DNA of 64,000 nucleotides, taken from Blasia pusilla (lineage: Eukaryota). Both the position numbers and the translations under genes were made by a program. The first letter of the stretch is position 1. Each line of letters begins with the position of its first letter. The notes under the pieces are model-generated. The model searched no databases and was not told the origin of the DNA. It was given only the letters and a program-made list of their open reading frames with translations. The DNA lies in the NCBI GenBank assembly GCA_050084515.1, contig CM114271.1, forward strand, positions 13,640,001 to 13,704,000, given 5' to 3'. Of the stretch, positions 12,401 through 45,153 are shown piece after piece.

Positions 12401-15026
12401 GTTGATCTCTGGGGTTGTCTCCTGTCCTTTTTGTGTCCTGTTGCTGGTAAAATCAATTCCATCATTCGTAGTATTTGAACTCCTTGTTGTTGCTTAGGAG
12501 TTGTATGAATTACAGTTTGTCTTTGTATAAAAGTATCATCATCTATCTGCAGAAAGTTCTATACTTAAAGAGCCAAATTTAGAACAGGAATGGTGTCATT
12601 GCTTCATCAAATTGAATCAGCTCACAGGACATATATTGACTAGCAAGCTTCGGGTGTGTTGCCGTGAATTGCAGAGTTTTGGTGGCTTCTGTGCAGTGAC
12701 ATATCTGAGCATTGCACCAGGTGGTTTGCGGCACGTGTTGCTCACAGGAGGTCTTCCACCAGTTGATGAGGGTTGTACAGCAGATTTGGTCTACCGTCAA
12801 TGTTATGAGCGAGTAGCTTTGCAAAACGCTAAGTTTTACGCACGATTCCCGCAAGATGAAGAGGTGGTTCGCTCAATAGTCCTCCATTTGGCTAAGGAAG
12901 GAGGGGTGAGCCATAAGCCAGAACTGTCCCTTAAAGTGCTATATTTTAGTATCTTGATGGGGGGACTCAAATGTGTCAGTTTAGAATCATTGTACTGTTA
13001 TGAGTACTACAAATTGCTGTCTTGTTTAAGGATTTTGATATCTAAGTTGCAAATTGAGATTGCAAGTCCAAGGTACTTCGGACTAGATGTGTCAGTTGAA
13101 AGCCTTCTTAAACTCCTCTCATAGTGACATTATCTTTGAACACCTATCTGTCTTGGCAGGTACTAATGCCTTCTGGTAGCACACTCTCAGCTCGGGGTCT
13201 TCAGTTGCTGGGTCTATCTGGCTTGGGTTCTTCAGGTGGTTTTGAACGGTTACATTACATGTGAGTGGCAGACCTTTCGTAAATTTATAGTATCTGGGTC
13301 ACATTTTCCAACAGTGTAGAAATGGCAAATGACAGTCTTTCCTTGTTTACTTTGGTACTCAGTTTGGAGAGGGCATGGGATCCTGCCTTAGTACCCGATG
13401 CAAAGAGAACACTCAGTTACACATTCTTGCGAATGGTAAGAACTGCAATCTTTATTTGTTATTGATAGTAGATGTCTTCTGACTTACTCTTTTTAATAGT
13501 AGGTGCCAAACCTTGTTGCCATTGTTCCCAGAATGCCTGCTGTGCTAGTGGACTTTGGATTAGAGGACAGTATCTCAAATACAGTTGGCTGGCATGGTTT
13601 GGTTTGCACAAAATGTTGTATTGCATATTTCCTGTACACGGAATCACTCTGATTCCAAAATTGTTGATGTGAACAGGTTGAGAACTGGCTAGACTTCGAT
13701 ACAAACCCACTTTATGCTCTTTTGCACGAATCTATTTATTGCCAGGTACAAGCTAATATAGTAACCAAGGAAGTATCGAAGCCCCAGAGAAGATGACTTT
13801 AACTTGTCTGCTATAAAGAGCCCTCACTTTTTTCCGGGTTCTGTACCCATACAAACATGTTTTGAGGCTCTTCTGTACATTCGACAGTGGAAGATCAAGT
13901 CCTCTTATGTTAACAGTTAAATTCTTGTAAGTTTTGGAAGATTAATTAAGAAGTTCATCTACACAATTTAGCGTCAGAAAAACTGGGATAGCTTCTTTAC
14001 TCCTGCTTTCCTGTAATCATTTGTGTAGTTGCTTTGTTTTGGGTGGAGAGGGTAATCAACATTGTGAGGCAAGACACCGTATGACACATAATTAAGCTGA
14101 CCTGTTTAAGTTGATCAGAAATTCTCTAATTCGTCTTATTTACTTTGACTGAAGGGAGCAGCATCAAATTGGTCTGCACATCGAGTTAGAGAGGAGTTAG
14201 GAAATCAATTCGAAGCCGTTGTAGCTGCCTCCAACGGTCAACGTGTCCTCTTTACTGGAGAGGTATGTAGGGTGAGATTTCAGCTCAAGCGTATTATGCT
14301 TTGTTTGCTGGGGAGAGTTGCATGAAAGTGCCACTGTGTCAACATTGAAGGACCAAAGTCATTAGTCCAAAGTCTTTACAGTTGAACATCAACTGTAGAG
14401 CTTGGCATATTCTATTGTAGAGACAGAAATCAACGTGGGAGGATTGTTGAGAAGCTGTGTGGGCTACTAGAAAGTTAGATCTATTGCTGAGCTGCTTAAT
14501 CATGAGCTCGAATTCCCTGTGGACAATTTTGTGGAGTGGTCTATGTTTCCAGATGATTTTCCCTTGGATGTTTGATGAGCTGAAGGCCCTGCAGCCTTTT
14601 AAAGAGGCCGCACATATTTTGGCCGCAAAGGAGGACTGGCCACATATTTATGACAAAAATATTCTTCGGAATAACAAGGTAATTGTCTCGTTTTTGTGAT
14701 CTAGTTAGTTGTCGGCATTTCTGACCTCTTTTAAGCTCATGAGCATACTTTAGGATCTTGGTTTGGCAATCTTTCATAATTTGAAAATCAATGGCAGTGC
14801 CTACCAACTAAGAGCCTCCTTGTCTGCTCAGGTTCCTGTTGCGGCTGCAGTGTATTATGACGATATGTATGTCAGCTTCAAACTTTCAGAAGCTACGGCT
14901 TCGGAAATAGCTGGAATAAGGATGTGGGTCACGAATGAGTACATGCACTCTGGTATACGCGAAGATGGGCCCCGGATCTTGGACCACCTATTTGGTTTGT
15001 TGAAAGGAAAGATTCTCCTGCGTTGA
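9444..15026 (+). CDS. PIP: Proline iminopeptidase (peptidase S33, alpha/beta hydrolase). 11 exons: 9444-9646, 10615-10784, 10940-11076, 11277-11450, 12675-12905, 13160-13260, 13363-13435, 13677-13745, 14155-14262, 14553-14678, 14832-15026
   Basis: Spliced frame gives LYLQGGPGF, LLDQRGTG, FRADNIVRDAE, nucleophile motif LGQSFGG, LLTGGLPP, FTGEMIFPWMF, AAVYYDDMYV and TNEYMHSG. Splice phases are consistent. Exon 1 is Arg/Ser/Ala-rich like an organellar transit peptide; it is the least certain exon. Confidence 0.92.
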
Positions 15027-18715: not shown

Positions 18716-18974
18716 TGGAGAGAAATCCACTGAAAGAAGAAGGAGAAAGTGCACAAACACCACATATACTTACCTAGCCACTTGCAAGGATAAAGGCATG
18801 ATATCTAAATGATCCTTGAGCAAGGTTTTGAGTCAAGGGCAAGAAGCAAGGAAGTGGGGAAGGTTAGTGGAGTTGGGTGAGACGTCGTGAGACAAGCTAC
18901 AAAGCACAAGGATCGGCAAGAAAATCATGAGACACCAAATGATGGACATGGAAACACATGTTTATCAATAAGGC

Positions 18975-19491
18975 TGTCACGTCCTTTAGGATAGATCGGT
19001 GAGATATAGTAGAGCGTCTTCAAGAGTAGTGGAGGACAGGCCTAGGAGGTTGAGGATGACCTGCTGTGGCCCCGGGAAACCTGAGAGAGCAGGTTTCCCC
19101 TTCGTTTTGGCTCATTTGGAGCCATATTGAGGAACTTACTATTTTAGGTAAATACCATTTTGAGTATATGATCGACTTTGTATTTTTGGTAAGTGGCCCT
19201 TGACCTCCTACATCAGGTCAAGAGCCAAAGAGGTGACTTGGGAGAATAGTTTACCATGGAGAGAGCTTGGGAGAGGGGAGGGGTATATATCCCAAGGAGA
19301 GAGAGAGCTTGAGAGCTCATTCTCTCTTTGTTAAACCTCTTGGCATGAGGCGGCGGAGCTATGGTCCCTTGCCTTGTGAGTGTAACCCAAGCCTCTCATT
19401 AGGAGAGTGGGTTTGGTTTGACATGAGAGAGAGTGCACACCTTTGAGAGCTATGGTGTGAGATTGTGTAGAGAGAGATTGGATCTTACTTT
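18975..19491 (+). repeat. Terminal repeat A1 of copy 1
   Basis: Near-identical to 29732-30250 (about 8 substitutions and one 2-bp indel by eye). Contains TATATAT at ~19284. Not followed by B. Confidence 0.95.
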
Positions 19492-21386
19492 ACAAAGAGA
19501 TAATGAGAGAAAGAGAGAATGCGAGAATGAGAGAGTGAGAGAGCTTCATGGGGGAGCTCGCTGGTCACTCGCTGTTTTTGAAGGTTGGGGACCGTGTTCC
19601 CCGTTGAACGGCTCATGGGAGTGCTCATCGGAGCACGGGTTGCTTGGATTGTTTTTTGCATTTGTCGATTTTTCGTGTGGAAGAGTGGCGCCGGAAGCGC
19701 TGCCCAATTTCTGATAGGGATTGAGTATGGGAGCGGGTTGCCCCATGCCAGTGCTTTCAAGAGCACCATGTTGCTTTCTGATTTGCATTTTTATAGGTTT
19801 TACATTTTTGTTGGGAGCAATCAGCGCGGAAGCGGTGCCGAATGTTGGGTAGAAGAAAGAGACATTGGGCTTTACGACAGTCCTGGTTAGTTTTTACTGG
19901 AATGTTCGATTCCAAACATTTTTTAATACTAGCGTAGATCGTGAAGCTGTGCACGATGTGCAACAAAAAATTGCGCAATTTGGAGTTGCAAGCAAAAAGT
20001 TATGGTCAATCTTGCAAAACTGCCATTGCTAGGCGATTTTTAGGGTTAAATTATGCAAACCCTAAACCAGGCGCCACACCGGAGGCGGCCGTCGCCGTCA
20101 ACCTTCAACGGTCAACTTTCACCATCAACGGTCAACCATCACCAGCGACGGTCAACCGTCAACCGTCACCATTCGTCTGTCACCATCAACAGTCAACCGT
20201 CACCGTCAATGGTCCACCGTCCGTTGTCCACCCTTGGTTTCCATTGCCGCCGTTACGGAGTGGAGGGTCTTCCACAACGTTCGTTGATTCTCGGACTTGC
20301 GTCACGATCACATACTTTGTTTTGGCCGCCACTGTCATCAACCTGTGATGGCATATGACCTCATGTTATAGTGTTTGAGTTTTGATTTCCTGCTGCTATG
20401 TTGTGATTGGTAGCCGCTCAACGACGACCGAGTATCGTGCCATGACGTCCGTAGCCACAACTCGCCGCCGATTGCCGCGCCGTGCAGCTCGTGGCCGCAC
20501 CGCACCGTCTTGATCGCGGAGCCGCTCCAGCATTGTGGAGCAGAGTGTGGGTTTATTGTTGATTGAGGAGGGTATGCCGCTGAGTGCGGCATCCCATCAT
20601 CGAGGGCCATGCCGTTCGTAGCCGTTCCGTGCCGCCTGCAACGCCGCACCATTCCGCTGGAACTGCACCGTCTATCGAAGAGTTTTGAGCAACGTCAGTA
20701 CAGGAGGAGTATGACTTGCTGATTGGAGGAGTTGTCTCCACGTCCGAGTTGGGGTCGAGATTCGCAGTTGCTGATGGAGCGACATCGACATGTGTTCAGG
20801 TTACTCATTCTAGTCCTTTACCCTGCACGTGTGAAGGATTCTAGGATTTGGGTAGTTTATTTGGAGATATTGGATGTGTGGATGCTGAGAGCATAATTTA
20901 TGTATGTGATTTAGGGGACATAGACCTATGTGGGATGTCCGGAGTTGAGGGTAGGTTGTCGATGAGATGATAGCCTGGTCGATTTGCCGCACCATGCCGC
21001 TTATTGCCGCACGTTACATATCTCGGGGAGAGAGAGTGGAGATCGAGTGCCGCATGTTTGGGATGAGTGATTGAGGGATTACTCGCGAGGCAAGAGTGAT
21101 CGGGTGAGAAGGGCACGAGGGTCATCAAGGCGTCCGTTCGGGACTTTGAGAGGCGAGGTGGTGAACCCGAGAGTAGCTCTAGAGGTTTTACGCGGAGTGG
21201 CCTGAGGTTCCAAGGATCTTCACTTCAAGGACCACCTCGACCTCCTTCTGTGTCATCGTCATACGAGGGGGAGGGTGTAGAGGAATTTGTGAGCACATTG
21301 CCACACTTTGTGAGTGGTCCTACAAGTTGGGCGTACGAGATGGACGACCGGGGTAGAGGTTTTCAAGTGCAGTAGGTACGATTGAG

Positions 21387-22362
21387 TTGCACGATTTCAT
21401 AGCAGAGTTTAGGAGTTGGTGCGACTCCGAGCGGGCCAGGAACTCTAGAGAGTTTAACCCGTTTACAACATGGAACGGTATGTTTCAACATTTAGAGGGG
21501 GCACCCATGGACGATTACCATGAGTTTTCCCACAGATATGCCCAGGAGATTGAGGCATGGCGATTCTACTACGACCCATATTATGTGTCATGGACGGAGC
21601 CACTCCCAGATGAGGAGGAGGAGTCAGGACAGGCTACTTCCTCTTCCACTAGTGATGTTTTAGGAGGGGTCACTCGCATTGGAGCAGTTGCACCGTCTAG
21701 TCGAGTTCGTCTTAGGTTCAACCCCGTGGTTGAGTTCTTTGCTGAGTTGAGGGCGAGCTACCAAGGGGTATGGATGGAAAAGTTGCGGAGCATCCACAAC
21801 TTCCAGAGGTGCCCGAGTGAGAGTTTACGTGAGGCTTACACCCGCTTGCGCCGGTTGATCAACGTCACTCAGGGGTTGACAGAGGCTCAGACTATCCAAT
21901 CATGGTACGCGATGGTGGACCAGACCCTACGGCCACGGGTGCGGGAGGGGGTTCTTCTTATGAACACCTCCCCTACGTTGAGAGATGTTTTTAGGACCGC
22001 CGAGAACATTGAGCGCAACATGGCAGAGGAGAGTGTAGCCACCATGGGTTCTGGGCGAGAGCAGTCGCGATTGGCTGCACCACCTGTGCAGCAACGTGGA
22101 CTCCGAGATGGGTCAACTGTGGCATCACGAGCTCAGGGAGGATACCGGGAGCCCGTGGCACAGAGACCTGCGCCTTCATATGCGGCTCAACAGCAACCAC
22201 CTACTATTACTTGTTGGTCATGTGGGGGAGCCCATCATCAGCGCCACTGCACTTGTCAGGGTCATGGACGTATGCCTTAGCATGGAGGAGGAGATGGTGC
22301 TGCACCAGGAGGTTATCAGTGTGACTATTATCAGAGGTATGGTCATACACGCGCCAGGTGTT
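21387..22362 (+). pseudogene. gag with two zinc knuckles
   Basis: Retrotransposon gag-like FQRCPSESLREAYTRL; knuckle CWSCGGAHHQRHC; second knuckle CDYYQRYGHTRARC after a frameshift (intact as CDHCHRYGHTRDRC in copy 4). Confidence 0.85.
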
Positions 22363-22574
22363 TCAATTTACATCCTGAGCTACGTTCGGACCGAGGGCCA
22401 GAGAGGGCACTAGAGCGAGTAGCCGGTCCGGGTGGGCCTAGAGATTGTGCACCAGGTGGTCCCGTTGGGGGACGAGGAACTGGATTTGCCCGACAGGGTG
22501 GTGGAACTGCCCGTGGAGGAAGTAGAGTACCACCACCTAGACGCGCCGAGGGAGACGCCGGATGTGAGGCTAGG

Positions 22575-23663
22575 ATGGCTGCTGAGATACAGCAGCTACA
22601 GGAGCAGATTGTTGCTATGGCATTGAGGTTACCCGATGCCGGATCCGTGGCATCGACATCATATGGAGCAGCTAGAGATCTGGAGGATCTTGGTTGGATC
22701 TGCGGGGTTGCCAAGATGGAGGCCGCTGCAGTTGTGACGCGTGGAGCAGCCGCAGAGTTGGATCCACAGCGAGGGGAAGCCAGAAAACAGACTAGACTTC
22801 CTCAGTCTTTCACGTTGTCCGAAGTGATGAGGACCCCATCGATGAGTCCTCATCAAAGTTCCTTGGGAGTTGGTGATGTTGTTGGTGTGCAGGCACGGAG
22901 GGTGATGGGAGAAGTGAGTGCGAAGACTCCTATTGTTGATGCTCAGGAGGGGCATGTGTCGAGCATATTGTTGGGGGCGGCCACCGTTGTGTACCGCACT
23001 CCTTTATTTTCTGCTTCCGATGTTATGACGTTGGGGGGTACGCCCGCCGAGGCTTTTCGGTTGGCCGCGTCGCTATGTGAGCGGAGAGTTGGATTTCCTG
23101 CATCACGTTCAGAGGTAATTGCAGAGGAGGTGATGGACCTGCCCTTGGAGCGGATGCTCGGACCGTCCACGTCAGATTCATGGCAGGCTGCGGCTGCTAG
23201 AATGGCGGAGATGCCCACTAGACCCGCGATAGAGCGTGCCATGGCTTCTCCTGGTGTTGTGTTGCTGGATAACCGAGGAAAGGTCTTCCAGTTGGTGAGT
23301 CCTGGAGGTAGAGCTTTTAGTCCGCAGCGCGTCTTGTTGGATTCAGGAGCGCAACCCTTGATGTTGGGGAAAGCGTCATTCAGAGGATTGGGCTTGACGA
23401 GAGCCGATATGGAGCGTTTTCCATTCCGGATACAGACATCCTTGGGTGGAGCGAGTACCACACAGTATATCACCCGACAGGAGATTGTGGTGAGGATTTG
23501 CTCGGGACATCCTACTGATGAGTCTGTGGTGGGCGCCAAGGCGATAGTGACTGATGTAGAGTCCTACGACGTCTTGGTTGGTGGAGCAGTGTTATACCCG
23601 ATGGGGTTTTCCCTGGATTACTGGGAGGAGTCAGCGCCCCATGACCAGGATGGCGATCGGTGA
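22575..23663 (+). pseudogene. Retropepsin-type aspartic protease region
   Basis: RVLLDSGAQPLML active site and YDVLVG C-terminal motif. Confidence 0.85.
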
Positions 23664-24048
23664 TGGGCGCCTTAGCTCATTACCCATTCGATTCACAGGT
23701 GCAGTGATCGAGCAACGGCCAGGAGAGATGGCGACCTTAGCAGCATTTAGCAGTGCCATCACTTGGCCTAGTGATTTGATTGAGGAACATGTCCATGCAG
23801 AGGATACTCCCATTCTTGACATTTCTATGGAGAGGAGTGTTATGGTAGCCGCATCATTCCATGGAGGAGAGGTGCCGTTGTGGGGCTCGAATGAGGAGCC
23901 TCAACGATTGGCAGATGAGCACGTGGAAACTGCGTGGAGCGAGGCTTTTGCACCGGAGCGTGATGGGTGTGAGGAACCCGAGGTAGCAAGGAGTGCTATG
24001 ATGACACCCTTGGATATCACACCCATTGTGTGGAGTATCCCGGAGAAG

Positions 24049-24995
24049 GGTATTCGAGTATTAGATCTCTTTGGAGGGATTAGCACGGGGTTAGCTGCTG
24101 TTTTGCAGGCAGGAGTGCGAGTGCAGCAGTATCTATATGTGGAGAGTGATGATGTTGCGAGGCGTGTCTCACTACAACATGTGGCGCAGTTACGCCTACG
24201 TTTCCCGAATTATTGTTTGCGTCCGCGGCACAAGGATACCAAAGTTCCCTACCGAGGGATATTTCGTTGTTGGGGGCGCAGGACTTAGAGCGGGTAGGGA
24301 CCATTGATTTGGTCATTGTCGGTTGGCCATGTCAGGGCCAATCGAGTGCTGGACGAGGCAGCGGGTTGGTTGACACTCGGTCCAGGTTGTTTTGGGAGAT
24401 GTTGAGGGTCTTACGGCAGTTGCAGGAGCACCGGTCTTGTTCTCCAGCCTACATTTTGGAGAATGTGCTGATCTTAGGAGACTCCAGGTCACGGGTGGTG
24501 ACGAGTGCTCATCAGGTGGGTGCCTGGATCGGCCCAACAGTGTTCTTGGATGCGGCGAGTGTAGGTTCTAGAGCCCATCGCCCATGTCTATGGTGGACCA
24601 ACTTGGTGCCCCATGCGGTGTTATGAAGGGCGTATGCGAGAGTGGAGCGCCCCTCCCATTTGTTAGTGGATTTCATTCTGGATCTAGGTCGTCAATCACA
24701 AGCAGTGAGGCACGATGATCGACCATCGTTGACTGTGGTCAACAGGGTAGGCAGGCCGCGGGTTGCCATGCCCACGTTTGTGAGTTTTCCCGCTTCCTAT
24801 GCATACAAGGAGACCGGTCCTGGCTTGGTTTGGGATGACCAGGTTCAGCGGTTAGTGGAGCCCAACGCCGACAAGAGAGAGCGAGCGATGGGATTTCCCA
24901 TAGGAGTGACAGCAGTACCATCAGTGTCAGAGGCATCATGATGCCATGTCTTGGGTCAGGCGATGGACCTGAATTGCTTGACATGGATCCTCAGC
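24049..24995 (+). pseudogene. DNMT3-like C5 cytosine DNA methyltransferase domain within pol
   Basis: Motifs in canonical order: I IRVLDLFGGISTG, II YVE, III RDI, IV DLVIVGWPCQ, RSRLFWE, VI ILENV, VIII RAHRPCLWWTNL, IX ERAMGFP, X LGQAMD. One frameshift and in-frame stops. Confidence 0.92.
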
Positions 24996-25399
24996 TTGGG
25001 AGTGGCTGAGCAGCGTCGTATGAGATCGCGAAGATCACGGCCGGTTGCAAGCAGTGAGCCCCATGCCTACCGAGACGGTGGAGGCAGTGGCTGGGGGCGA
25101 GACCCGAGGAGATCGGGAGAGACACCCTTGGACTTCTTGGGATGTTTTGCAGCGTACGCAAGAAGATGATAGCCACAACATCGAGTGTGGTTTCGGGCAC
25201 TGCATGTGGAGGAGTTCAGAGTTTGCAGTTGGCTGCAGGAGAGCGGCCGAGTGTTGTTGTTCGAGACCGGGTTGCACCATAGCAACCACCGATACCCACA
25301 CCGGAGAGTCCTACCGTAGTCACGATGGAGACTTGGGAGCCACATATGGGCCCTAAGTTGAAAGGAGGAGAGCGGCGCCGAATACATCAGTTCCTCATG

Positions 25400-27400
25400 A
25401 GTTATAGGAGCTGCTTTGCGTTTAGCATGGAGGATTTGGGTACGCTGAAGGGATCGGGGATCCGCATTGAGTTGTCGAGTGATACGCCAATCTTCTGACG
25501 ACCCTACAGGTACAGTGATATGGAGAGGGCTCTGATTCAGAGTAGGAGCCAGGACTTGGTCAGAGCAGGACTAGTGGAGATGTCGCATGGGGAGTATGCA
25601 TCTGCCGCTCTCATGCCCGCCAAGAAGGATGTGCATGGCAACTGGACGGATAGGCAGATGTGTGGGGATTACCGACCTATCAATCGGCAGACGAAGTCCG
25701 ATAGGTATGCCATGCCCACCCATGAGGAGATCTTTGATGCGATTGGTCATGCAAAGGTCTTCAGTTCATTGGATTTGCGAGCCGGATACCATCAGCTGCC
25801 TATCAGATTGGAGGACAGGCAGAAGATGGCATTTTGGGGCATCGATCCTCACGGGAAGGATTGTTTGTACCAATGGCGGTTCTTACCATTTGGGTTAAAG
25901 AACGCCCCGGGTGAGTTTCACAGGGTCATGGATAGGATCTTGGCTGGTTTGGATTTTGCTAGGTGTTATATTGATGACATCGTAGTCTTTAGCGCCACGG
26001 TTGAGGAGCATGAGCGACATCTAGAGGAGGTGTTTTGACGATTGCAATTACATGGGCTGAAGCTACATCCAGGCAAGTGCAAGTTCCATTACGACCAGAT
26101 TGAGTACTTGGGTCATACGATATATATCCAGGGGGCCTTGGTGTTCAGCAAACGAAGGTAGAGGCTATCTGTCGCGACCCTCATGACCAAACAAGTGCCA
26201 AGCGGAACATCGGAATATTAGCGGGCTCACGCTAAGATGGTTTGCGCGTTGGAGTGTCTCAAAGAGGAGACAAGAGACGAGACGCGAACGAGGAGTCGCG
26301 TTTCAGTTGTTATGGTCGCGACTAAGAAACGTGGACCAAACGCGGAATGAGACTTGGAAGAAGTCGAGTCTAGGAAGTGGGTTGCCAAAGGGAAGATCCG
26401 GATTTGGAACGCCACTAGCGTTTGAGAGTTTCCGACTGTATTTATGGCCATAACTTTTAGCTCCAAGATGCGTTTGGAGAAAATAAGGGTGCGATGGAAA
26501 GCTTATGGAGAGCCGGTCCAAACGCACTAGAGATTGCTGCAAACGCATAAGCAGCGGCTGAGATACGACCCGAAAACGACTGTAAGTGGAGTCGGGTTGA
26601 GGGCCACAATGAAGGGCCCGACCCTCTTTTCCCAAAGGGGAGGGGTTATTGGAGAACCCCAGAAGTACTAGTAAGGGGGAAGGTCTCCGAGAGTGCTTGG
26701 AACCCAAACCCCACTTTGGGCGCCGCGGGGCGGCTCAAGGGCATGGAACGGAACGCGAGTTTGGGCGTTGGGTTGGAAAACCTGCACCAAGTCCATTGAG
26801 GTGATTTTAGACATCCCTCTTGGAATTCACACCGCGACTCAATTACTTGGGTCTCGGTTCAGAACTCACCCGAGGACCGTTGAACAGTTGGGATCGCTAG
26901 GTGCGCAAGGGCCGTTTCAGATCCCTGGACCAACCAGGAAGTCTGTTCCAAGTCTTGAAGGACTTGCCATGTTTTGGAAGCTAGGAACTAAGGAAGGTTG
27001 AGCTTGATGAGACGCCGAGTTGAGGACTCGGTGGGTTGGAACGCCGGTTGGCCCAAACCCAACTAACGGAGTGCGTGTTTGGGTGCAGATCGGCGATGAG
27101 TTCGTGACCTATTGAACGCACGCTTCCGCAACACTAAAGATTAACGTTCAAGGAGAGTAGGGGCGCGACACTATCTCACGCATTCCACGCCCTACAGATG
27201 TGAGCCATGTTCGCGCATTCATGGGATTGGCGAACTTCTATCGGTGATACGTGAAGGGATTCAGTTCAATTGTGAAGCCATTGGCCTTGTTGACGAAGGT
27301 GAATCACGAGTGGCACTAGGGGGATGAGGAGGAGCGAGCATTTCAGTTGCTCAAGGACAGGTTGACTTCTGCGCCCATCTTGAGGAGACTGATCAGGGGG
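25400..27400 (+). pseudogene. Gypsy-type reverse transcriptase, interrupted by a solo LTR
   Basis: MCGDYRPIN, SSLDLRAGYHQL, LPFGLKNAP, YIDDI. KVEAI/SRIPRP rejoins when 26170-27170 and one TSD copy are removed. Confidence 0.93.
26170..27170. mobile_element. 1001-bp solo LTR of an unrelated retrotransposon inserted in RT
   Basis: TGTCGCG...CGCGACA termini; 5-bp TSD CTATC (26165-26169, 27171-27175). Confidence 0.88.
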
Positions 27401-27412
27401 TGTCCTTTCTAG

Positions 27413-27886
27413 TTGCACACAGATTGGAGCATGTTGGGGCTTGGAGCCGTGCTCACCCACCATGATGATGAGGGTAGAGAGTTCGTGGTGGCTTATGCTA
27501 GCCGCTCGAACAACGCTGCAGAGGCAAAGTACAACTCGTATGAGGGTGAGTGCTTGGCTGTGGTATGGGTTGTCGCGCATTTCAGGTGTTACTTTTTCGG
27601 CAACCCCTTTACCATCATCACTGATCATCAACCACTGAAGTGGTTGATGGAGTCCAACAAGCTTACAGGGAAGCTTGCGAGATGGGCTCTGTTGTTGCAG
27701 GAGTATGATTTTCAGGTGGTACATAGACCTGGGACGCTCAACCAAGATGCAGATGGGTTGAGTCGTAACCCATGCCCGAGTCAGCGAGATGCGACTGGAG
27801 CTCGATGGCATGGAGAGAGTGATGAGGAGTTGGTGCCAAGATGGCACGCGTCAGCCTATTTAGGCATGTTGGCTATGGAGAGCTAG
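27413..27886 (+). pseudogene. Gypsy RNase H
   Basis: LHTDWSMLGLGAVL, VAYASR, YEGECLAVVW, TDHQPL, LARWALLLQEYDF, NQDADGLSR. Confidence 0.93.
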
Positions 27887-28149
27887 AGTGTGGAGACTTC
27901 GATGGCGAGGTCTAGTGGAGAGTCCTTGGATCCCGAGGCCAGTGAGGAGACGACAAGTGGTAGAGATATTCATGATGATGGAGTAGTCTTGGAGTACCTT
28001 CGTACTCGCAACGTTGCGAGCACCGTGGATGCTAGAGAGCAGGATCGGATCCTATATCGGGCCTGACGGTTCCGTTGGGAGGGGTACATATTTTGAGGGT
28101 TTGGGAGGATGGCAAAGTACACGTAGTGCCGCATCCTTCGTAGAGAGCA

Positions 28150-29215
28150 CGACTAGTGCAACATGCCTAGGAGGAGTTGGGTCACTTTGGGGTGAAGCGG
28201 AAGTACAGCTTGCTCCAGATTCAATATTGGTGGCGAGGCATGCAGACTGACGTTCAGCAGTTTGTTGCCAGGTGCATGGTGTGTGATCGGGTCCGAGCAT
28301 CGTTCAATGCTCCGACTCTACAGTTGCATCCATTACCGATCATGGGCTTAGGGTATAGATGGAGTTTGGATTTTGCAGGACCTTTGTCTTTGACGGTGCG
28401 TCACAATCGTTATGTGTTGGTGATGGTCGAGCACTTCTCGAAGTGGATCGAGTTGGTTGCATTGCCTGACAAAGCGAGTGAGGGAGTAGCTTATGCCTTC
28501 CTTGACAGAGGGCTAAGTCATTATGGCACACCGGATGAGGTGTTGACAGACCAGGGTACCGAGTTTAGCGGTGAGTTCCAGGCCTTGTGTGATCACGCTC
28601 TGATCGACCACCGCACGACATCGCGAGATCATCCCGAGGCGGATGGATTAGCAGAGAGAGTTGTGCAGACGGTGAAGAGGGGTTTAAGCAAGTTTGGCTT
28701 GCAGAGAGGGCACCTAGGAGATTGGGACCTCCAGTTGCAATGGTTGGAGATGGGATACAGATTCAGCAGGCAGGTAGGCAGGCATCCTTAGCGTCTTTTT
28801 CACCGTACTTGCTACTTTATGGCCGAGAGCTAGATTTACCTGCGGCCATTTGTCAAGATGCTGGTGAGTTGCTAGACCTTAATGACCCAGATGTATGGGT
28901 GCGAGCATGTTCTCAGAGGGCTGAGTTGTTTCGGAGAGCGATGCCCATGGCGTTCGATAACTTGGCGATTGCGCAGCATCGAGATACGTTGAGGTATGCG
29001 ACTATTCGGGATGGTGGTTATCGACCAACTATCCGGAGGTTTCATCAGGGAGATTATGTCTACTTGCAGTAGACGGCACTGACGACGTTGGATGTGACTG
29101 CAAGGCGCACTATCTTGAGAGTGCGTGACGTTTTGCCATCCGGTGTTCTCTCGCTGGAGGGACGCGATGGTATGGTATGGAAGGACCATGTGTGTAATTG
29201 TGCACCATATCACCT
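28150..29215 (+). pseudogene. DDE integrase
   Basis: GHFG...CMVC zinc-binding region; core WSLDFAGP, LTDQGTEF, GLAERVVQT. Confidence 0.93.
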
Positions 29216-29273
29216 TCCTAACATTGATAGTACAGTGGATTCGAGCTTAGCAGTAGGTCCTGCAGGCTTGTAT

Positions 29274-29414
29274 TGTATGTTGTGTGGTTCTGCCCGTTGT
29301 GCGGCCACGATGCTAGTCTGTGATGGTTGTTCGAGAGGTTGGCATATGGCATGTCTGACGCCACCTCTCACTAGGGTTTCTCGAGGACAATGGATGTGTC
29401 TCAGATGTACATAG
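29274..29414 (+). pseudogene. PHD finger at the C-terminus of integrase/pol
   Basis: CMLC...LVCDGC...WHMACL.PPL...GQWMCLRC is a C4HC3 pattern, followed by a stop. Confidence 0.9.
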
Positions 29415-29601
29415 AGGAGATACTAGGTAGGTTTCGATCCCGACCTTTTTCTCTGACATGGATGACAGGAAGGCGACTAACGATGGGGCCACATGAGCAC
29501 CCAGCCTTCTTGCTCTTAGCGTCTGAGAGATGTATGCCATGGTAGGTAGGGATAGATGGCTATCTAGAGTTAGAGGGACCTAACCACCAGCTATGGGGGT
29601 G

Positions 29602-29729
29602 ATTGGAGATATTTTGGTACTTCGTGTCTCGTTGTTTGGATGGCATGAGTTAGCATGGGATCGTGCGTGTTTGTGTGAGTGTTCAGTGATAGCGATGTAT
29701 GTTGTGTAGCGATATGTATGCGCACGACA
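29602..29729 (+). repeat. Repeat B1 of copy 1
   Basis: 128 bp, attggagat...cgcacgaca; matches 30251-30378. Confidence 0.95.
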
Positions 29730-29731
29730 GC

Positions 29732-30250
29732 TGTCACGTCCTTTAGGATAGATCGGTGAGATATAGTAGAGCGTCTTCAAGAGTAGTGGAGGACATGCCT
29801 AGGAGGTTGAGGATGACCTGCTGTGGCCCCGAGAAACCTGAGAGAGCAATTTTCCCCTTCGTTTTGGCTCATTTGGAGCCATATTGAGGAACTTACTATT
29901 TTAGGTAAATACCATTTTGAGTATATGATCGACTTTGTATTTTTGGTAAGTGGCCCTTGACCTCCTACATCAGGTCAAGAGCCAAAGAGGTGACTTGGGA
30001 GAATAGGTTACCATGGAGAGAGCTTGGGAGAGGGGAGGGGTATATATCCCAAGGAGAGAGAGAGAGCTTGAGAGCTCATTCTCTCTTTGTTAAACCTCTT
30101 GACATGAGGCGGCGGAGCTATGGTCCCTTGCCTTGTGAGTGTAACCTAAGCCTCTCATTAGGAGAGTGGGTTTGGTTTGACATGAGAGAGAGTGGACACC
30201 TTTGAGAGCTATGGTGTGAGATTGTGTAGAGAGAGATTGGATCTTACTTT
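29732..30250 (+). repeat. Repeat A2 of copy 1
   Basis: Copy of 18975-19491, separated from B1 by a 2-bp GC linker. Confidence 0.95.
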
Positions 30251-30378
30251 ATTGGAGATATTTTGGTACTTCGTGTCTCGTTGTTTGGATGCCATGAGTT
30301 AGCATGGGATCATGCGTGTTTGTGTGTGTGTTCGCTGATAGCAATGTATGTTGTGTAGCAATGTGTATGCGCACGACA
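30251..30378 (+). repeat. Terminal repeat B2 of copy 1
   Basis: Copy of B1; ends CA, followed by TSD AGGC. Confidence 0.95.
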
Positions 30379-33300
30379 AGGCGCAAAGGAATTGGGATGA
30401 GATTCCACAGGAGTTTGGGGAAGTATAGATTGGAAACATTTGCCATGAGACTCTCCATAGTCATCTTGGTGGTTAACTATCCAAACGCGGTTTCTTGAGA
30501 TGTGAACCAAGTTTGGGTTAAGAACCACAACCAAGGGCCCGCGGTGGATGTGGAGAAAAGTAGGGTTCTACGATAAAACTCCCAAAATACCTATAGGGAG
30601 GGACCAAGGTTGCACGCGGACAAATGTCCGTCCCAAGGACGAACATGTCCATGCGGGCTCGGGTGCAGGCTCCATGAGCCTGTGTTGCCTGCGACCCGCA
30701 CCCGCACCCGGGCCCGTGCACACCAAGCATTCCACCCTTGCCCGGCCAGTGTGCATCACGCTCGGCGTTTGTTTTTCGGTAAGGCTCGCGTCGCGGACAA
30801 GTTGGGCCCATGTCGCGTCCTTTGATTTGTTGCTTCTGACCCTAGCCCACATTCGGGTTCTATGGCCCACGTAAAGCCTGCGCACGGGCTTCGTGGCTCG
30901 CGACGCCTACCCTCCGGCGCGCAAGCCCGCCCCGCCCTCCCCGGCCTGCATGCGGGCTCGTGAGCCCGCCTTGCCTCCCCTCCTTCCCCCCGGCCCGTTG
31001 TAGCCCGCGCGGGCCTTGCCAAATTGTGGGGCGCCATGTGGCACCGCTATTCGTAGCCCGCCGACAATTGCCCCCACCATAGCCCGCCGTCAACGGCCCA
31101 ATCGTTGGCGCCCGCATTGAGCCCGCGTCTCGCGAATCCCACGGGGATATGTGGCGGCCTGGGAGTGGCTAGGGGCAAGTTCAAACTTGGCCCCGCCCCA
31201 TCCCCTTCCCCACCTTCCCCTTTTCTCCCTTTTGGGTAAAACCCATAAGAGAAGGGCCCACAAGAGGCTCCAAAATGTACATATGGAGGGGGGATTAAGG
31301 ACTTAATTACCTAATTATCACTAATTTCCCCTATTTATCTAGTTTTTTGGTGTTATTTTGGATTAGGCTCCAAATTTTTATGGTGCCTTGATAGCTAAGG
31401 GCTTTCAAGGTTACTAGGAATTTTGGAGAAATCCCTTGGGTGCCTTTTGGGGGTACTTGGATTTTATTTAGGACCAACTTGGATATTTGCGCTCCTTGTT
31501 ACATCCTAAAGAAATTCCAATTGACTCCACATTAGGTGAGTGCTTGTGAGTACGGATTTTTTATTTTCTAAACTTGTTTGGCCATTTTGAGATTTCCGAT
31601 TCATAGACCCCACTGTTTTGATTTTGATTTTGATTTGTTTCATTGGTTCTCCTTAGTACATCGGGGATATGGAGGTGATCAAGGAACCTTATCTAAACAC
31701 ACCCATATCTACCTTTTCCCTTTGAGTGCCCAACCCTAAACTTAGACCGACGTTCCATCATTCACGCCCGCGTACATTCTGAGCCATTTTTTTAGCATCT
31801 CGCGTCATTATCTTTTCGGTATTTTCTTATCTCAACTCGTACATTTCTTTCCCTTGTATTTTTAAAAGATTTTTTTATCTTCTTCATCCGAGGAAAATAT
31901 CTAGTGGGGCTGGGTCATCAAGAGCGGAAGAGAACCGAAACAAGTCCAACGTTGGTGCCTAGAGGCAAAGAGAAAATTTGAGAAATGATTTCAACATGGC
32001 CGTAAGAGAGGCATGGTTAGACTAGTTTTTCCAGCTTTCTTTAGATAAGAGACAATCCTCCATTTTGAGGGGTATGGATGGTTTCCATGACTACACCTTG
32101 GAATTGTAGAGATTTTCCAATAGAGTGGCAAAGGCATTTGACTGGGAAGTGGATGCCGCGGAGGCTGATAGGTTAACTAAATTGTGTGACCAACAAGGTG
32201 CTAACCTGGAGAGAGCGTATGTCAATCTCAAGACATATAAGGATGAGAAGTAGAATGCTGCAAAGTTGGCTAGAAAGATTCTATGTAGAGTTAAGAAGTG
32301 CTCAACGTCTTTTTAAGGGACGTAGTACTTCTCTAAGGTTGACATTGACCATTCCATGTGCAATAACATTGATTTCGGATAAGAATGTAGTAGTAGGACA
32401 TGACTCGAGAAATATCATGGAGATTGGTTTACACGGAATTGTGTACTGTTGTAAAATAAACGGAACCCATGGCTTTAGGGAAGAAATATACAATTGCATG
32501 AAGGTGTAAAAGGAATCATCTCTATCAGGATCTAGGAAATCGATGATGCGCGAGGAGTTATTTGCAAGTATTTTACATCGCGATGTTGTCCGCATGGTGG
32601 GAAGGTTGATCGGGGATCCACTGCGTACCATTTTCCCATATTGGAATGATGGACACCTCTTAATCCAAGCACACAAGTGCAAGATCTTTTGAATTGGATG
32701 AAGGCAATCGTAGTAAGTGAAGGAGGGGCTCTCACGCCAAACAATTGGCCCAAATGCATGATCTACTTCAACCCAGTTGCTGCAGAAGGTTACTACGTGA
32801 CAGACATATATAAATCTTGTTATTGGCATCCAAATTGTCTTCATAAGGCCATGCTACTATCTCTCAAGTGTCAAACTTGTTGACAAGCTTGGTCAGGAAG
32901 ACTCTATCACCTTTTTGACATATCTTTCCGCGCTTCTGCTGGCAGTGCATCACCCACATATTGGACGTAAACCGAAGAGCAAGAAAATTTCACTTTCAGT
33001 TTGGGACATCGTAGCCCCCGATCGAACTATAACCCCGAAGTGAACATGACGGGGTGGTTCAAGCATTAATCCCTTGTTAGCAGAGGATTGATTGGGCAAT
33101 GCGAGCGTGGCTGGTCCGCTTCATTGACATGTACGATCGAGGAGAGCTCATCCATGAAATAGCCATTGATCTCCAAAATCAAGAGGCGGAAAACTTCTTC
33201 TTTGCTCAGAGGTTGAATCCACAAGAACTTTGAGACGCCCTCAATACAACTCGACAACTTGTGCTAAACCATCATCAAAATCCATGGGTGGATGACCTTG

Positions 33301-34379
33301 TTTTGAGGAGACTCGAATTGATCTTGCCACCTTTCTTATGACAAGATATTCCTCAAAGGATTGAAGGCGGATATCCTCAAACATACTATTACCCTCGTCG
33401 AATGTAGGAGGAACTCCTTGGATTCTTTGAGAGGGAGTGGGAGATGTTTTCAACACAGCCAACACAAGAAATAAATGATCGTGAAGCCCATGTTGAGTTG
33501 GAAAGGACTATTCCTCGTGGAGGTGGGACGCGCGTGACTAGAGCTAGGGGAAGAGGAGGAAGAGTTGGTGAGACGTCTCGACGGTCTTACATATCTCTGA
33601 TGATGAATCAGATTAGATAGAATGAGTTCATATTTATATCTTTGTAATGTACATAAGTATTAGGTTCCTCTCAATCCAGATGTTTTGTGAGGTACTCCTC
33701 ATTTTTTGTAAATATATTTTAAAAAAAATTCAAAATATTCCACTGAGGAGACTTGTGAATATGAGCCGGTCATAAATGTTGTCCATGAAGTGAGTTCATA
33801 AAATGGATAAATTTTTTCTCTTGGGTTATAAGTCCTTGGATAAGGTGTAGGGTACGATAATTGAAAGGTTTGTTTGATATAAATTTAAATATTTTATTTA
33901 TTACTAACTCTTCAAAATTTACTAACTCATCAAAATTAGTGATTTTATTTTATTTATTGAAAGATGAGGATTGGAAAAGGGATGAATTTGTTTTCCAAAA
34001 TTAATGAAGGAAAATATATGTTTGAATCTAATTGTAAAGGAAAATAATGTATGAATTTTTTTTAGTGACCAATATTGCATGGGGTAGAATTTGAAAGGGA
34101 TTTACATGGGATAGAAATTTTTTTAATACTATAATAGGTGAATATAAATATTACCAAAAAAAGAGAAAAAAAGATAAAGAAATTATTTGTGCCTTCATTC
34201 ATATGTAATGGAAAGGGAAATTGAATTTTAATGGAGAAGGAAAAGATTTGGTTCGAATTTTATGGAAGGGTGAATTTACTTACGAGACTAGGATATTATT
34301 TACATTTGAATTCATGACAATAATTACTTACAAGAGTGAAATATAATAACTCTTCTAAGATTTTACAGGATAGTGCAGA

Positions 34380-35310
34380 TGGTCCCCAAGTTACATCTAT
34401 CACTCTTGCAAAGTCTCAACCTAGATGAAGTTATGACCACAACTTAAAAAATGACCTTTTGGACCCCAAGAACTAAACCTTGAATGAAAAAAAGGTCTTT
34501 AATTTTTGATCTTGTCAAAAATTTCCATCTTGAGTTGAAATTTGGCTCACATGGTCTCCAAAATGTATGTAACACTCTTGCCAAATGGAGTTGGGACCAC
34601 AAGCTAAAAAATTGGCTAGTCCTTTTAGGACCCTAACCATGAGATCTTTTATCAAAATAAAGTTTTGTCATTTTTCATCTTCTCCAACTTTCCCATCTTG
34701 AGCTGAAATTTGGCCCACATGGACCCCAAGGTGCATGATCCACTTTTGCCAAGTTTTAAGCAAAATCGAGTTGGAACCACAAGCTCCAAAATTGGAAAGT
34801 CCTTTTTCAACCCGAACCATTAGACCTTCCATCAAAATGAAGTTTTTTCATTTTTGATCTTGTCTAAATTTCCCATATTCGGCTGAAATTTGGCCCACAT
34901 GGTCCCCAAGGTGCACGTTCCCCTCTTGCCAAGTTTCAAGAAAAATGGAGATGGGACCACAAGCTCACAAATTGGCAAGTCCTTTTAGGACCCGAACTAT
35001 CAGACCTTCTATCAAAATAACTTTTTTCTATTTTTCATCTTGTCCAACTTTCCCATCTTGAGCTAAAATTTGGCCCATATGGTCCCTAAGGTGCATGTTC
35101 CACTCTTGCCAAGTTTCAAGAAAAATGAATTTGGGACCACAAGCTCAAAAATTGGAAAGTCCTTTTCGGACCTGGATCATCAGACCTTCTATTAAAATAA
35201 AGTTTTTTTTATTTTACATCTTTTCCAAATTTCCCATCTTGACCTGAAATTTGGCCCACATGATCCCCAAGGTGCATGTTCCACTCTTGCCAAGTTTCAA
35301 GTTAAATGGA
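34380..35310. repeat. ~180-bp tandem array, ~5 units
   Basis: (g/a)aaatttggc(c/t)ca(c/t)at recurs at ~34536, 34705, 34886, 35064 and 35246. Confidence 0.9.
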
Positions 35311-35329
35311 GTAGGGACTCTCTATACAC

Positions 35330-41684: not shown

Positions 41685-43560
41685 TCTCGTGCCAGTAGAC
41701 ATCAATGCAAACAGACATCGGCTTTCATGCACACAAGTCTAACATCTATCTAACTATGAATCCTAACACATCTACATATGAACGACTGGACAACCCAACA
41801 ATAAAATGCCACGTTGATCAAATGTGCAATCAACTATGCCTAGTCCAAGAATCCACTCAATGATACACAGTCTGCAATGAACTCTCAATATGTGTGATTT
41901 CCGATCAAACCTATTTCATTCTTCAAAAGAGAATCTAGGCTCAATACATGCAAGTTACATTGTATCATGGATCCCAACATGGGTTTGATCTAAGGAAGAT
42001 GAACTTTGAATGAACTTCATTCGAGGTACACCCCCCTTGGGCACCTCCCCGGGTGACTTGCACACACAGGTAATCTCCTCCTAGCAGGTCACCAACGACC
42101 TAGAGAACACAAGGTACTAACTCCCTAACAACTACATACAAGGTCCTTTCATAAGGTCAACTAATACTCAACTCAAAACTAAAACTCAAACCCTGTAGGC
42201 CCAAGTGGTTCCACACAAAGGATAACATGGTGAACCTCCCCAAGATTGCTACTTCTCATAAAGGGAAGCATGACCTATGGTTGTAGATCACCTCCTAAGA
42301 GCATGTCACATATTACCTCTTAAAATGGGGAAGTACAAGACCCATCTAATATAAGGCCTCAATACTATTTCTCCTTACATCTCATCTACCATAATAGTTG
42401 TCATGTAAGTTGACATCGTTGCCAACATAGATGCGTTGTCATGCACACAAGTCTAAGATCCATCTAATTATGAATCTAACACATTTACACATGAACGACT
42501 AGAAAACCCAAATCATCCCTCTAGCTGGTGGTTAGGTCTAAGTATAAATATTATGCACCTTTCTGTGCTAAGATCAAGAGGTTGGGTGCTATGTTGCCCT
42601 ATCATTAGTCACCTTCTTGCAATCCATAACATCAAGAGTCATCTTGTAATCTACTTATAATATCTATGTACATTTGGGGCAAAATCAACGTCACTAAGGA
42701 ATCAAATGAAGAAGCGGTGTCGAACAAAAATATATGCCATACTTGAGAACACCCATCATAGACTAGCATCGTGGCTACTCCGTTAGAAGACCCATACAAC
42801 ATACATCTCAAACTTGTAGGAACAAGTGCCAAACTCAGATCAATAATCCCATCCACATTCAGAAGATGATATGGTGCATAGTTATGTACATAATCTCTGT
42901 AAAGGGGGACCATCACAAGCTTCTAAAAAAAAGTACAGTTTCCTAAAAGTAAAAACTCTTGTCGTAGTACTTGCAGAATAGTGCATCCTATTGTCACGTC
43001 CTATGTTGTTGATGCCATTTGCGTAAGTAGACATAATCAACATGATGGAATAGTCGTATCCCTTATTGATACCTCAGAGTATTGCGATGCCAAGCGATAG
43101 CGAGGTTCTTAAATGCCATAAGCATGGTACTCCAAAAGATCTCAGTCGGTTGAGAATATGCTTGCATCCAAAAGTCTGGGTCATCAAGTTCAAGTACTTA
43201 GACCACATCTATACTAGCTCTCTCCCATAGAGCAGGAAATACGATGAAAATAATGCCAACCATGCTTGTCGATTGGAGCAATAACCCATTGCACCAACCA
43301 TAAAAATTATAGGTCCCAATCTCTTAAGTGTCCTCTTTGCAGCCGATACTTGCGTAATGCTCTTCTCACTATTTGCAAAACTCTCTCTGCCAAACCATCT
43401 ACCTCCAAATGATCTCGAGAAGTTGACCGATGACCAATCACCACCTGATGCCACAAGGCATGAAAATCACCCCTAAACTCAGCACCCTAGCTTATCAACA
43501 CCTCCGCTGATGCGCCAAAATGAGTAAGCTCTCAATCAATAAATGCATAAGCGGCTCCAA
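41685..43560 (-). mobile_element. 3' fragment of DNMT-gypsy family (copy 3): integrase end, PHD remnant, B-A-B repeats
   Basis: B copies at ~41685-41800 and ~42399-42512, with A between them; PHD remnant CMLYGSSNGVATMLVYDGCSQVWH; integrase remnant FSSYFLLYGREL. Confidence 0.85.
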
Positions 43561-45110: not shown

Positions 45111-45153
45111 AGCAAACTCGGTACAATATTTCCTCCTAATATTTTGAACCCTT

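Follow-up and report, generated by a model that had tools for sequence, protein, structure and literature searches.

A DNMT3-like cytosine methyltransferase domain in a probable Ty3/gypsy-type retrotransposon with split direct repeats from Blasia pusilla

We analyzed a 64,000-nucleotide stretch of Blasia pusilla DNA (contig CM114271.1, positions 13,640,001 to 13,704,000 of the forward strand; hereafter the window) that carries a DNMT3-like C5 cytosine methyltransferase (DNMT) domain on its plus strand at 24049–25013. The domain lies within an element at 18975–30378, which we read, with a probability of about 80%, as a decayed copy of an 11.4-kb Ty3/gypsy-type retrotransposon in a bryophyte-like host. 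On this reading, the element (copy a) comprises gag, protease (PR), DNMT, reverse transcriptase (RT), RNase H (RH), a DDE integrase (INT) and a PHD finger, enclosed by direct repeats that are split between its two ends.

Motif searches locate six methyltransferase motifs within the domain, all on the plus strand: LDLFGG (motif I, 24061–24078, frame 1), GWPCQ (motif IV, 24321–24335), ENV (motif VI, 24459–24467), RAHRPCLWWTN (motif VIII, 24570–24602), ERAMGFP (motif IX, 24879–24899) and LGQAM (motif X, 24951–24965, frame 0). The order I, IV, VI, VIII, IX, X is non-permuted, and the circular permutation of DRM enzymes, with motifs VI–X ahead of I–IV, is not seen in the window domain. The original prediction, made from the letters of this DNA, had quoted a motif series in this order with catalytic PC and EN retained; all six of its motifs are present, and both catalytic pairs are intact in the window copy, within GWPCQ and ENV. 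It had also proposed a Pfam check, in which the absence of a significant match would speak against a methyltransferase. The piece at 24153–24623 matches DNA_methylase (PF00145) with an E-value of 2.8e-11 and 43.9 bits (cut-off 22), and the read-through peptide of the whole window domain (P0001) matches it with 1.3e-10; the three remaining DNMT pieces and the gag and protease pieces have no Pfam match individually.

The window domain is broken by a frameshift near 24201–24210 and by in-frame TGA codons at 24624–24626 and 24939–24941. In an alignment with intact relatives (alignment A1), both TGA codons correspond to arginine in five of five sequences, and the second arginine of motif VIII is a cysteine (RPC) in the window copy. 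The two stops and the Arg-to-Cys exchange are changes of the kind that CpG deamination would produce.

We used the intact domain of a Marchantia relative (P0005) for comparison with solved structures. By sequence, its best matches in the PDB are DNMT3A (3e-11) and DNMT3B and DNMT3C (about 1e-9), followed by weaker matches to tobacco DRM (6.9e-4), HaeIII (1.8e-4), the DNMT2 tRNA methyltransferase (2.8e-4 to 0.015) and Arabidopsis DRM2 (0.15). Query residues 1–126 pair with the C-terminal part of the tobacco DRM chain (230–349), as expected of a permuted enzyme. An AlphaFold2 model of the DNMT domain, built on a 32-row alignment, has a mean predicted local distance difference test score (pLDDT) of 96.2 and a predicted template modelling score (pTM) of 0.93. 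Among the top 50 PDB chains retrieved with this model by Foldseek, every row shown is DNMT3A, DNMT3B or DNMT3C; the best E-value is 5.9e-19, and the best match has TM scores of 0.72 by query and 0.82 by target, with identities of 20–23% over about 320 columns. By sequence and predicted fold, the domain is DNMT3-like and resembles DNMT3 more than it does DNMT1, DNMT2, DRM or the bacterial enzymes, which bears out the proposal that it resembles DNMT3 rather than DRM.

The domain shares with the host enzymes DNMT3A, DNMT3B and DNMT3C its collinear motifs I–X and a short target-recognition region, in addition to the sequence and fold matches. It differs from them in its low identity (about 20–22%), in being some 40 residues longer than the solved DNMT3 domains (327 versus about 285 residues) and in its motif X, GQAMD. 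A Pfam scan of the window element and its relatives shows only retroelement domains around the DNMT and neither PWWP nor ADD beside it. Since these accessory domains are missing alongside, the domain as judged from its neighbors is not a host DNMT3 gene.

In the stop-to-stop ORF (open reading frame) list (standard code), the coding pieces of the element run along the plus strand from 21357 to 29414. The gag, which has a zinc knuckle, occupies 21357–22280 and closes at an in-frame stop (22278–22280) where relatives have none; in a tblastn search, residues 13–739 of P0005 span 21357–23642 at 44.5% identity. The protease region follows at 22281–23663 with its active-site DSG at 23340–23348, and VLLDSGAQPLMLGK is conserved in the Marchantia, Calypogeia and Sphagnum proteins. 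Beyond the DNMT, the first part of the RT (25283–26164) matches RVT_1 (7.2e-20 on 25499–26038) and the relative P0008 by tblastn, and contains an in-frame stop at 25496–25498. The RT end and RNase H lie at 27171–27886 (RT_RNaseH 3e-34 and RT_RNaseH_2 6.6e-20 on 27413–27886), and a frameshifted integrase with an H2C2 zinc-binding part and an rve core lies at 28126–29072 (rve 3e-14 and Integrase_H2C2 1.7e-12 on 28171–28791; tblastn with P0021). A PHD finger at 29274–29408 forms the C-terminus of the integrase (Pfam PHD 6.5e-10 on the piece 29073–29414). Further frameshifts occur near 23642–23659, in the stretch 25013–25283, and at the transitions from RNase H to integrase and from integrase to PHD.

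Pfam order and tblastn both give the sequence PR-RT-RNase H-INT with a DDE integrase that characterizes Ty3/gypsy elements. Phage_integrase, the mark of a tyrosine recombinase, was not found among the ORFs scanned, which do contain rve and Integrase_H2C2, and Pfam finds no chromodomain at the integrase C-terminus, where the PHD finger stands instead. Among the best 60 solved relatives of this finger, the nearest are CHD4, KAT6A/B, KDM5A/B, DPF3, PHF21A, AIRE and UHRF1, and readers of the ING, BPTF and TAF3 types do not occur. PHD fingers of these nearest types are for the most part readers of H3 tails that lack methylation at K4.

Frameshifts and in-frame stops, together with an insertion of 1 kb in the RT, mean that the window copy is dead. 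The insertion (26165–27175) is private to copy a, as comparison with a second copy in the window (copy b) shows. It is a 1,001-bp TG...CA element (26170–27170) with CTATC on both flanks and 12-nt terminal inverted repeats, TGTCGCGACCCT and AGGGGCGCGACA. Its ends look like those of the element that hosts it. The TG...CA ends and CTATC flanks suit a solo long terminal repeat (LTR) as well as a DNA transposon, and it may be either solo-LTR-like or an element with terminal inverted repeats.

Searching the window by tblastn with relatives reveals three DNMT-bearing copies, that of copy a being delimited at 24046–25013 on the plus strand. Copy b (45153–49951, minus strand; identified by tblastn, self-blastn and ORFs) has its DNMT at 49951–49078 and RT-RH-INT-PHD down to about 46175, followed by right-end repeats; it is truncated inside the DNMT N-terminus, and AT-rich unrelated sequence lies upstream. 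The RT-INT parts of copies a and b are 74–78% identical in nucleotides. In the DNMT region, blastn gives no match between the two, and the proportion of differing synonymous sites (pS) is 0.78 there versus 0.53–0.63 in RT, RH and INT. Copy c (5923–7371, plus strand) is an old AT-rich DNMT remnant that tblastn detects with P0005, P0008 and P0019 at 28–47% identity; its ORF at 6853–7140 aligns to the motif X region.

Beyond the window, a search with P0001 for longer proteins returned 21 matches, the best in Calypogeia fissa (8e-115, 66% identity), a likeness well past what chance would give. Sixteen of them are gene models of Marchantia polymorpha, and two species of Sphagnum as well as metagenome proteins are also represented. 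The Marchantia protein P0005 is an uninterrupted gag-PR-DNMT of 1278 residues, and P0008 has the order PR-DNMT-RT-RH. A search for proteins of similar length adds Marchantia paleacea, Riccia sorocarpa and Sphagnum tenellum; among its named matches listed (120 of 197), we saw no vascular plant or hornwort. One database entry, 'MAG TPA: DNA cytosine methyltransferase [Candidatus Obscuribacterales bacterium]' (P0272), matches the DNMT of the bryophyte elements with 49% identity and 99% query cover, and is probably eukaryotic retroelement DNA misbinned into a bacterial metagenome-assembled genome (MAG). Scanning metagenome contigs gave 56 loci at 43–85% identity. The order gag-PR-DNMT-RT-RH-INT-PHD is partly visible in all 22 loci of at least 9 kb examined and contradicted in none.

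A profile search covering 1.84 billion representatives places this family in a wider setting. At E ≤ 1e-3 it gave 11,429 proteins, of which 1,995 remained at E ≤ 1e-10; the threshold E ≤ 1e-30 left 406 clusters. The best 150 representatives, each with at least 224 bits over nearly the whole domain, are all of the element type. Pfam finds retroelement domains in 18 of 20 long representatives, the other two being DNMT alone. Seventeen of the 20 have the DNMT between RNase H and integrase, 16 of these 17 with a PHD following the integrase, and a single one (P0060, CCHC-DNMT-RT-RH-INT) shows the window order. The sole named cluster is 'pol [Scenedesmus sp. PABB004]' (P0066/P0193), and no Klebsormidium homologue appears by name among 64 matches. 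In 243 proteins with the domain, the DNMT follows the RT or precedes the integrase 154 times, precedes the RT 13 times and stands alone 76 times.

To relate these domains, we built a FastTree phylogeny of 207 domain rows, leaving out rows with fewer than 270 profile positions and 12 of 19 bryophyte gene models. Copies a and b fall into a 10-row bryophyte clade (support 99), which is enclosed by a 33-row clade (support 99) holding all seven rows with DNMT before RT and none of the 148 rows with another order. Similarity to gag or PR is found upstream of the DNMT in 20 of the 31 database members of this 33-row clade. The tree shows the PR-DNMT-RT arrangement as having arisen once among element-borne domains, and the window family appears as one clade within a much larger algal group of RT-RH-DNMT-INT-PHD elements, all part of a very large assemblage of DNMT-bearing retroelements in the green lineage.

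We counted residue conservation over 242 family domains. The catalytic positions are nearly invariant: the motif IV Cys is kept in 232 of 233 domains, Glu and Asn of motif VI in 236 of 238 and 228 of 239, the first and second Arg of motif VIII in 231 of 237 and 233 of 235, and the third Gly of motif I in 203 of 204. The residue before the motif IV Cys is Glu rather than Pro (EC versus PC) in 84 of 232 domains.

Comparing coding changes across copies, as the original prediction had proposed, indicates constraint between diverged copies (ratios of differing nonsynonymous to synonymous sites, pN/pS, of about 0.25–0.5). Because synonymous sites are saturated, we give pN/pS and not Jukes-Cantor dN/dS (the ratio of nonsynonymous to synonymous substitution rates) for the DNMT of the window copies. 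Copies a and b differ with pN 0.26 and a saturated pS of 0.78 over 236 codons, and copy a compared with nine loci gives pN/pS of 0.25–0.45, again with saturated synonymous sites. Elsewhere in copies a and b, dN/dS falls from 0.18 in RT to 0.10 in RNase H and 0.09 in integrase, and pairs of loci with a dS of 0.15–0.30 have a DNMT dN/dS of 0.30–0.53. This pattern is one of constraint along the active lineage and of neutral decay after insertion, as is usual for a transposon family, judging by these substitution ratios.

Three stranded RNA-seq runs were mapped on 18900–30450 at a likeness of at least 90%, placing 3750, 3737 and 4000 reads. In every bin, nearly all first mates map to the minus strand, corresponding to RNA of the coding strand of the element, and read depth over the DNMT bins (23918–25075) is 12–49. 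About 86% of the reads are only 90–95% like the window copy and hence come from sibling copies. These sibling reads skip 26165–27170, the region of the private insertion (32, 43 and 37 reads in the three runs), and at 24626 they carry G and not the A of the stop (33 of 33, 27 of 31 and 58 of 58). The family, DNMT region included, is expressed as coding-strand RNA; the window copy itself need not be transcribed. A long leader (19493–21356, plus strand) separates the left terminal repeat from gag and is covered by sense reads of sibling copies; tblastn with relatives gives no protein match in it. At about 1.9 kb it is unusually long, with proline/serine-rich repetitive ORFs at 19938–20358, and its reads show small skips such as that from 20077 to 20162.

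Because the window copies, the metagenome loci, the gene models, the catalytic conservation, pN/pS and the RNA reads all agree, the DNMT is, at the level of sequence, shown to be a constant and conserved part of the family and not a chance capture. Sporadic occurrence without purifying selection, the outcome that the original prediction had set against itself, is not what we find: the domain is constant and conserved across a large retroelement family.

Between the DNMT and the RT of copy a lies an in-frame TAG (25280–25282, plus strand), followed by CAA CCA. The RT frame opens directly behind it, and we regard it as a candidate read-through stop between gag-PR-DNMT and RT-RH-INT. UAG-CAR-YYA is the tobamovirus-type read-through context, which the window TAG-CAA-CCA fits. 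Of the 56 metagenome loci, a pattern search finds 22 with GC(A/G)-stop-CAA-CCC-ATGG at this junction (14 with TAG, 8 with TAA); DNMT, a single stop and RT share one frame in 7 of 15 loci examined, and ORF1-type proteins from Marchantia, Calypogeia and metagenomes stop about 70 residues past the DNMT. The DNMT of the family sits in ORF1 (gag-PR-DNMT), upstream of a conserved stop, and RT-RH-INT-PHD occupies a second reading frame. The original prediction had embedded it in pol between protease and RT, and was right about the position, with the protease DSG ahead of the domain; the frame is that of gag and protease and not the RT-INT pol proper.

Self-comparison resolves the ends of copy a (plus strand) into two repeat types. 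Repeat A1 forms the left end at 18975–19492 (or from 18973) and starts with TGTCAC. At the right, B1 (29603–29729, ending ...GCGCACGACA) is followed after the dinucleotide GC by A2 (29732–30251, or from 29730) and then by B2 (30252–30378), which closes the element with ...CGACA. Identity is 98.1% between A1 and A2 (522 nt) and 93.75% between B1 and B2 (128 nt). The layout A1...B1-A2-B2 is the split-direct-repeat arrangement of DIRS, PAT and Ngaro elements; the text of PMC4157794 defines it for PAT and Ngaro. The outer ends TGTCAC...CGACA, with TG at 18975 and CA at 30378, are flanked in this single copy by AGGC directly before the TG (18971–18974) and directly after the CA (30379–30382), a putative 4-bp target-site duplication. 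Within copy a, the A pair differs at 10 of 522 positions and the more diverged B pair at 8 of 128, and in our reading of the alignment several of the B-pair differences are CG in B1 and CA in B2.

The same layout recurs elsewhere. Copy b has B1 at 45982–45864 and B2 at 45271–45153 at its right end, and the metagenome locus L037 has A1 at 5982–6309, B1 at 14379–14492, A2 at 14503–14829 and B2 at 14829–14944. The end of B2, CGCACGACA, is kept in both. At the internal B|A junction, the window copy has ...CGACA-GC-TGTCAC, and copy b and L037 have ...ACA-AC-TGTCAT; the junction looks like a right and a left end joined with two spare bases between them. Two equal LTRs are not present: the left end consists of A only and the right end of B-A-B, as also in L037 and at the right end of copy b, and no B-like sequence was found upstream of A1. 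We considered a standard LTR (B+A) with a truncated 5' LTR and rejected it: copy a and L037, which are independent of each other, both lack B ahead of A1, and the ...CGACA terminus of B2 is conserved in three copies.

The closest published element is KnitGypsy-Dnmt3 of Klebsormidium nitens, a Dnmt3-type domain in a polyprotein with Gypsy domains (de Mendoza et al., 2018; PMC5890265). As described in the text of that paper, the two agree in having a non-rearranged Dnmt3 domain with conserved catalytic residues, evidence of purifying selection, a streptophyte host and A-coding-B-A-B repeats 'same as that of a DIRS retrotransposon'. Measured against the text and legend of PMC5890265, the window family combines all the features of Gypsy-DNMT3, namely a Dnmt3 domain, Gypsy domains and A-coding-B-A-B repeats. 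This likeness is one of description, and the hosts differ, Klebsormidium being an alga and those of the window family being of the land-plant type (liverwort, Sphagnum). The text of PMC5890265 brings in bryophytes only for host Dnmt3, and does not mention a PHD, a protease, a chromodomain or an ORF1 position before a conserved stop. The ORF1 position, stop context, PHD and integrase-type ends may be shared with the published algal element or peculiar to the window family. Later texts name 'streptophytes (Gypsy-DNMT3)' (10.64898/2026.05.21.726589; PMC12344493), and in the full-text literature, mostly outside subscription journals, we found no report of DNMT retroelements in any land plant, liverworts and mosses included. 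The Gypsy-DNMT3 kind is already known from Klebsormidium (2018), and the window family provides new land-plant representatives of it.

Other systems share fewer of these features. The algal RT-RH-DNMT-INT-PHD polyproteins (e.g., Scenedesmus P0066/P0193) resemble the window family in DNMT subfamily (224–373 bits), Gypsy-type RT-RH-INT and C-terminal PHD, but have the DNMT between RNase H and integrase instead of between protease and RT; some algal-type proteins (P0084, P0128 and P0242) carry a G-patch between DNMT and integrase. SymbioDIRS-Dnmt3 of Symbiodinium has a Dnmt3-type domain and A-coding-B-A-B repeats, and methylates CG in yeast, according to the text of PMC5890265. It uses a tyrosine recombinase, whereas the window element has a DDE integrase with H2C2 and an apparent target-site duplication. 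Chromoviruses, which the text of a preprint mentions (10.64898/2026.05.21.726589), likewise place a chromatin-reader module at the integrase C-terminus; there it is a chromodomain, and in the window element a PHD finger.

These features suggest how the element may have worked. ORF2 (RT-RH-INT-PHD) would be reached by read-through of the conserved TAG/TAA-CAA-CCN stop. Since the DNMT lies upstream of this candidate stop, it would be synthesized as Gag-PR-DNMT, at levels like those of Gag, and then freed by the protease. During reverse transcription, both ends could be rebuilt from the internal B-NN-A junction as template, in the manner proposed for DIRS/PAT, and the DDE integrase would insert the linear product. 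The DNMT may methylate the element's own new DNA or the DNA at a new insertion. The integrase PHD, which resembles readers of unmodified H3 tails, might steer integration toward chromatin without H3K4 methylation, by analogy with chromovirus chromodomains, and new copies would arrive already resembling host-silenced chromatin. That the substrate is the element's own double-stranded cDNA or a fresh insertion, which the text of de Mendoza et al. proposes for DIRS-type elements (PMC5890265), seems to us the likeliest reading, though somewhat short of an even chance. The full picture is more tentative, a possibility that we would not bet on: a still-transcribed hybrid lineage of liverworts and peat mosses, with Gypsy enzymes, DIRS-like repeats that have TG...CA ends and a target duplication, a PHD, and a DNMT in the Gag-protease frame before a leaky stop, the DNMT being stoichiometric in the particle and methylating cDNA before integration. 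If true, this would be the first land-plant transposon writing the mark used for its own silencing.

Several observations weigh against this reading of a constrained, still-transcribed family with these ends and this ORF1. The RNA evidence is of expression at the level of the family and not of the copy, and its three runs come from a single study. Only one of 33 full-length locus matches (L004) has a DNMT free of stops and frameshifts, i.e., most copies are dead, and very close locus pairs have dN/dS values of 0.5–0.94 (one pair 0.23), indicating neutral decay. DNMT, stop and RT are shifted in frame in the other 8 of the 15 loci examined, which we read as decay, and the loci carry CAA CCC, a poorer fit to CAR-YYA. 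The target-site duplication is tentative, being only 4 bp long with its GC also preceding A2, and the left end of L037 is without the first 10 nt of A. Finally, the FastTree phylogeny is unrooted (midpoint only), includes element-borne domains only and is silent on the ultimate donor.

The methyltransferase might act in trans instead, on host chromatin round insertions or genome-wide, its benefit being less insertion harm or its presence merely tolerated. An enzyme freed from Gag-PR-DNMT would be untethered to RT or INT, effects on insertion-site chromatin and the host methylome are discussed in the text of de Mendoza et al. (PMC5890265), and there is decay of the CpG-to-TpG type, seen in both TGA codons of copy a at Arg sites and in many changes of R to C, H, W or stop in the loci. 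Such decay is, however, equally expected from host methylation of any transposon. The ratio of observed to expected CpG is 0.80 in the interior of copy a, above the 0.45–0.57 of the flanks, which speaks against trans action; it is 0.62 in copy b, 0.49 in copy c and 0.30 in A1 and A2, values compatible with progressive decay of methylated DNA that do not indicate the methylating agent. The present data suit action in cis and in trans alike, and we regard trans action as unlikely, though by no means negligible. A role other than DNA methylation, such as DNMT2-like methylation of RNA or tRNA or nucleic-acid binding in the particle, would suit the Gag-side position of the ORF, and RNA methylation is raised in the text of PMC5890265 for SymbioLINE-Dnmt, which did not methylate DNA in yeast. 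Here, though, DNMT2 chains match far worse than DNMT3 (2.8e-4 to 0.015 versus 3e-11), the full catalytic set is kept, including the Arg-x-Arg of motif VIII and a DNMT3-like C-terminal half, and the predicted fold matches DNMT3 over about 320 columns; we consider such a role improbable.

We also give little credence to an independent capture of host DNMT3 by the bryophyte elements, with convergent likeness to those of Klebsormidium and algae. Their PR-DNMT-RT site does differ from that of 154 of 167 typable family proteins, and DNMT has been captured repeatedly in eukaryotes according to the texts of PMC5890265 and 10.64898/2026.05.21.726589. Yet the bryophyte domain is 39–40% identical to those of RT-RH-DNMT-INT-PHD elements and only about 20–22% to DNMT3A/B; both architectures have the idiosyncratic motifs GSRAHRxRxxWTN, EPNAxERExAMG and LGQAMD and a PHD that follows the integrase; the text on KnitGypsy-Dnmt3 (PMC5890265) likewise describes B-A-B repeats; and in the unrooted tree the rows with PR-DNMT group into a single clade among the rest. 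That a fragment of a host DNMT3 lies inside the retrotransposon, or was disrupted by it, merely by chance is exceedingly improbable. Nothing but the broken frames of copy a speaks for it. The domain order is repeated in the other two copies of the window, in the long loci and in proteins from several species that are encoded by a single ORF, and PWWP and ADD are missing beside the domain. The three DNMT-bearing window copies together with the long metagenome loci refute it.

Cytosine methylation is the main transposon-silencing mark in plants, and a transposon family with its own de novo methyltransferase would reverse the usual picture of an arms race. The streptophyte example had previously rested on a single charophyte alga. 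With members in Marchantia polymorpha, which is transformable and has methylome resources, the function of the enzyme, its substrate, the sequence context that it targets and its effect on the element, beneficial or restraining, would become testable. The family also carries a warning for annotation, as many bryophyte gene models named 'DNA (cytosine-5)-methyltransferase', and probably at least one entry in a bacterial MAG, are retroelement ORFs.

The remainder of the window is rich in transposons. The original prediction had mentioned a PIP gene. Pfam, applied to 35 of the 96 ORFs of at least 75 residues outside the elements and to three ORFs in the RT insertion, gave no aquaporin, and a six-frame search for the aquaporin signature NPA[VRLI][ST] gave one non-aquaporin match, short exons possibly being missed; the PIP gene was not recovered. 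The Pfam scan gave only SH3_retrovirus, a Copia-type SH3-like domain (53353–53694, plus strand, 3.6e-17), a CACTA-type Transposase_21 fragment (61627–62055, minus strand, 3.9e-14) and a weak Atrophin-1 match below the cut-off. Further fragments of the DNMT family lie on the minus strand at 35595–37388 (gag-PR) and 41694–43558 (integrase and 3' repeats), and the region from 35 to 50 kb is a nest of DNMT-family elements. Self-comparison also reveals tandem or near-tandem repeats with periods of about 170–350 nt at 34376–35318 and 56833–57904.

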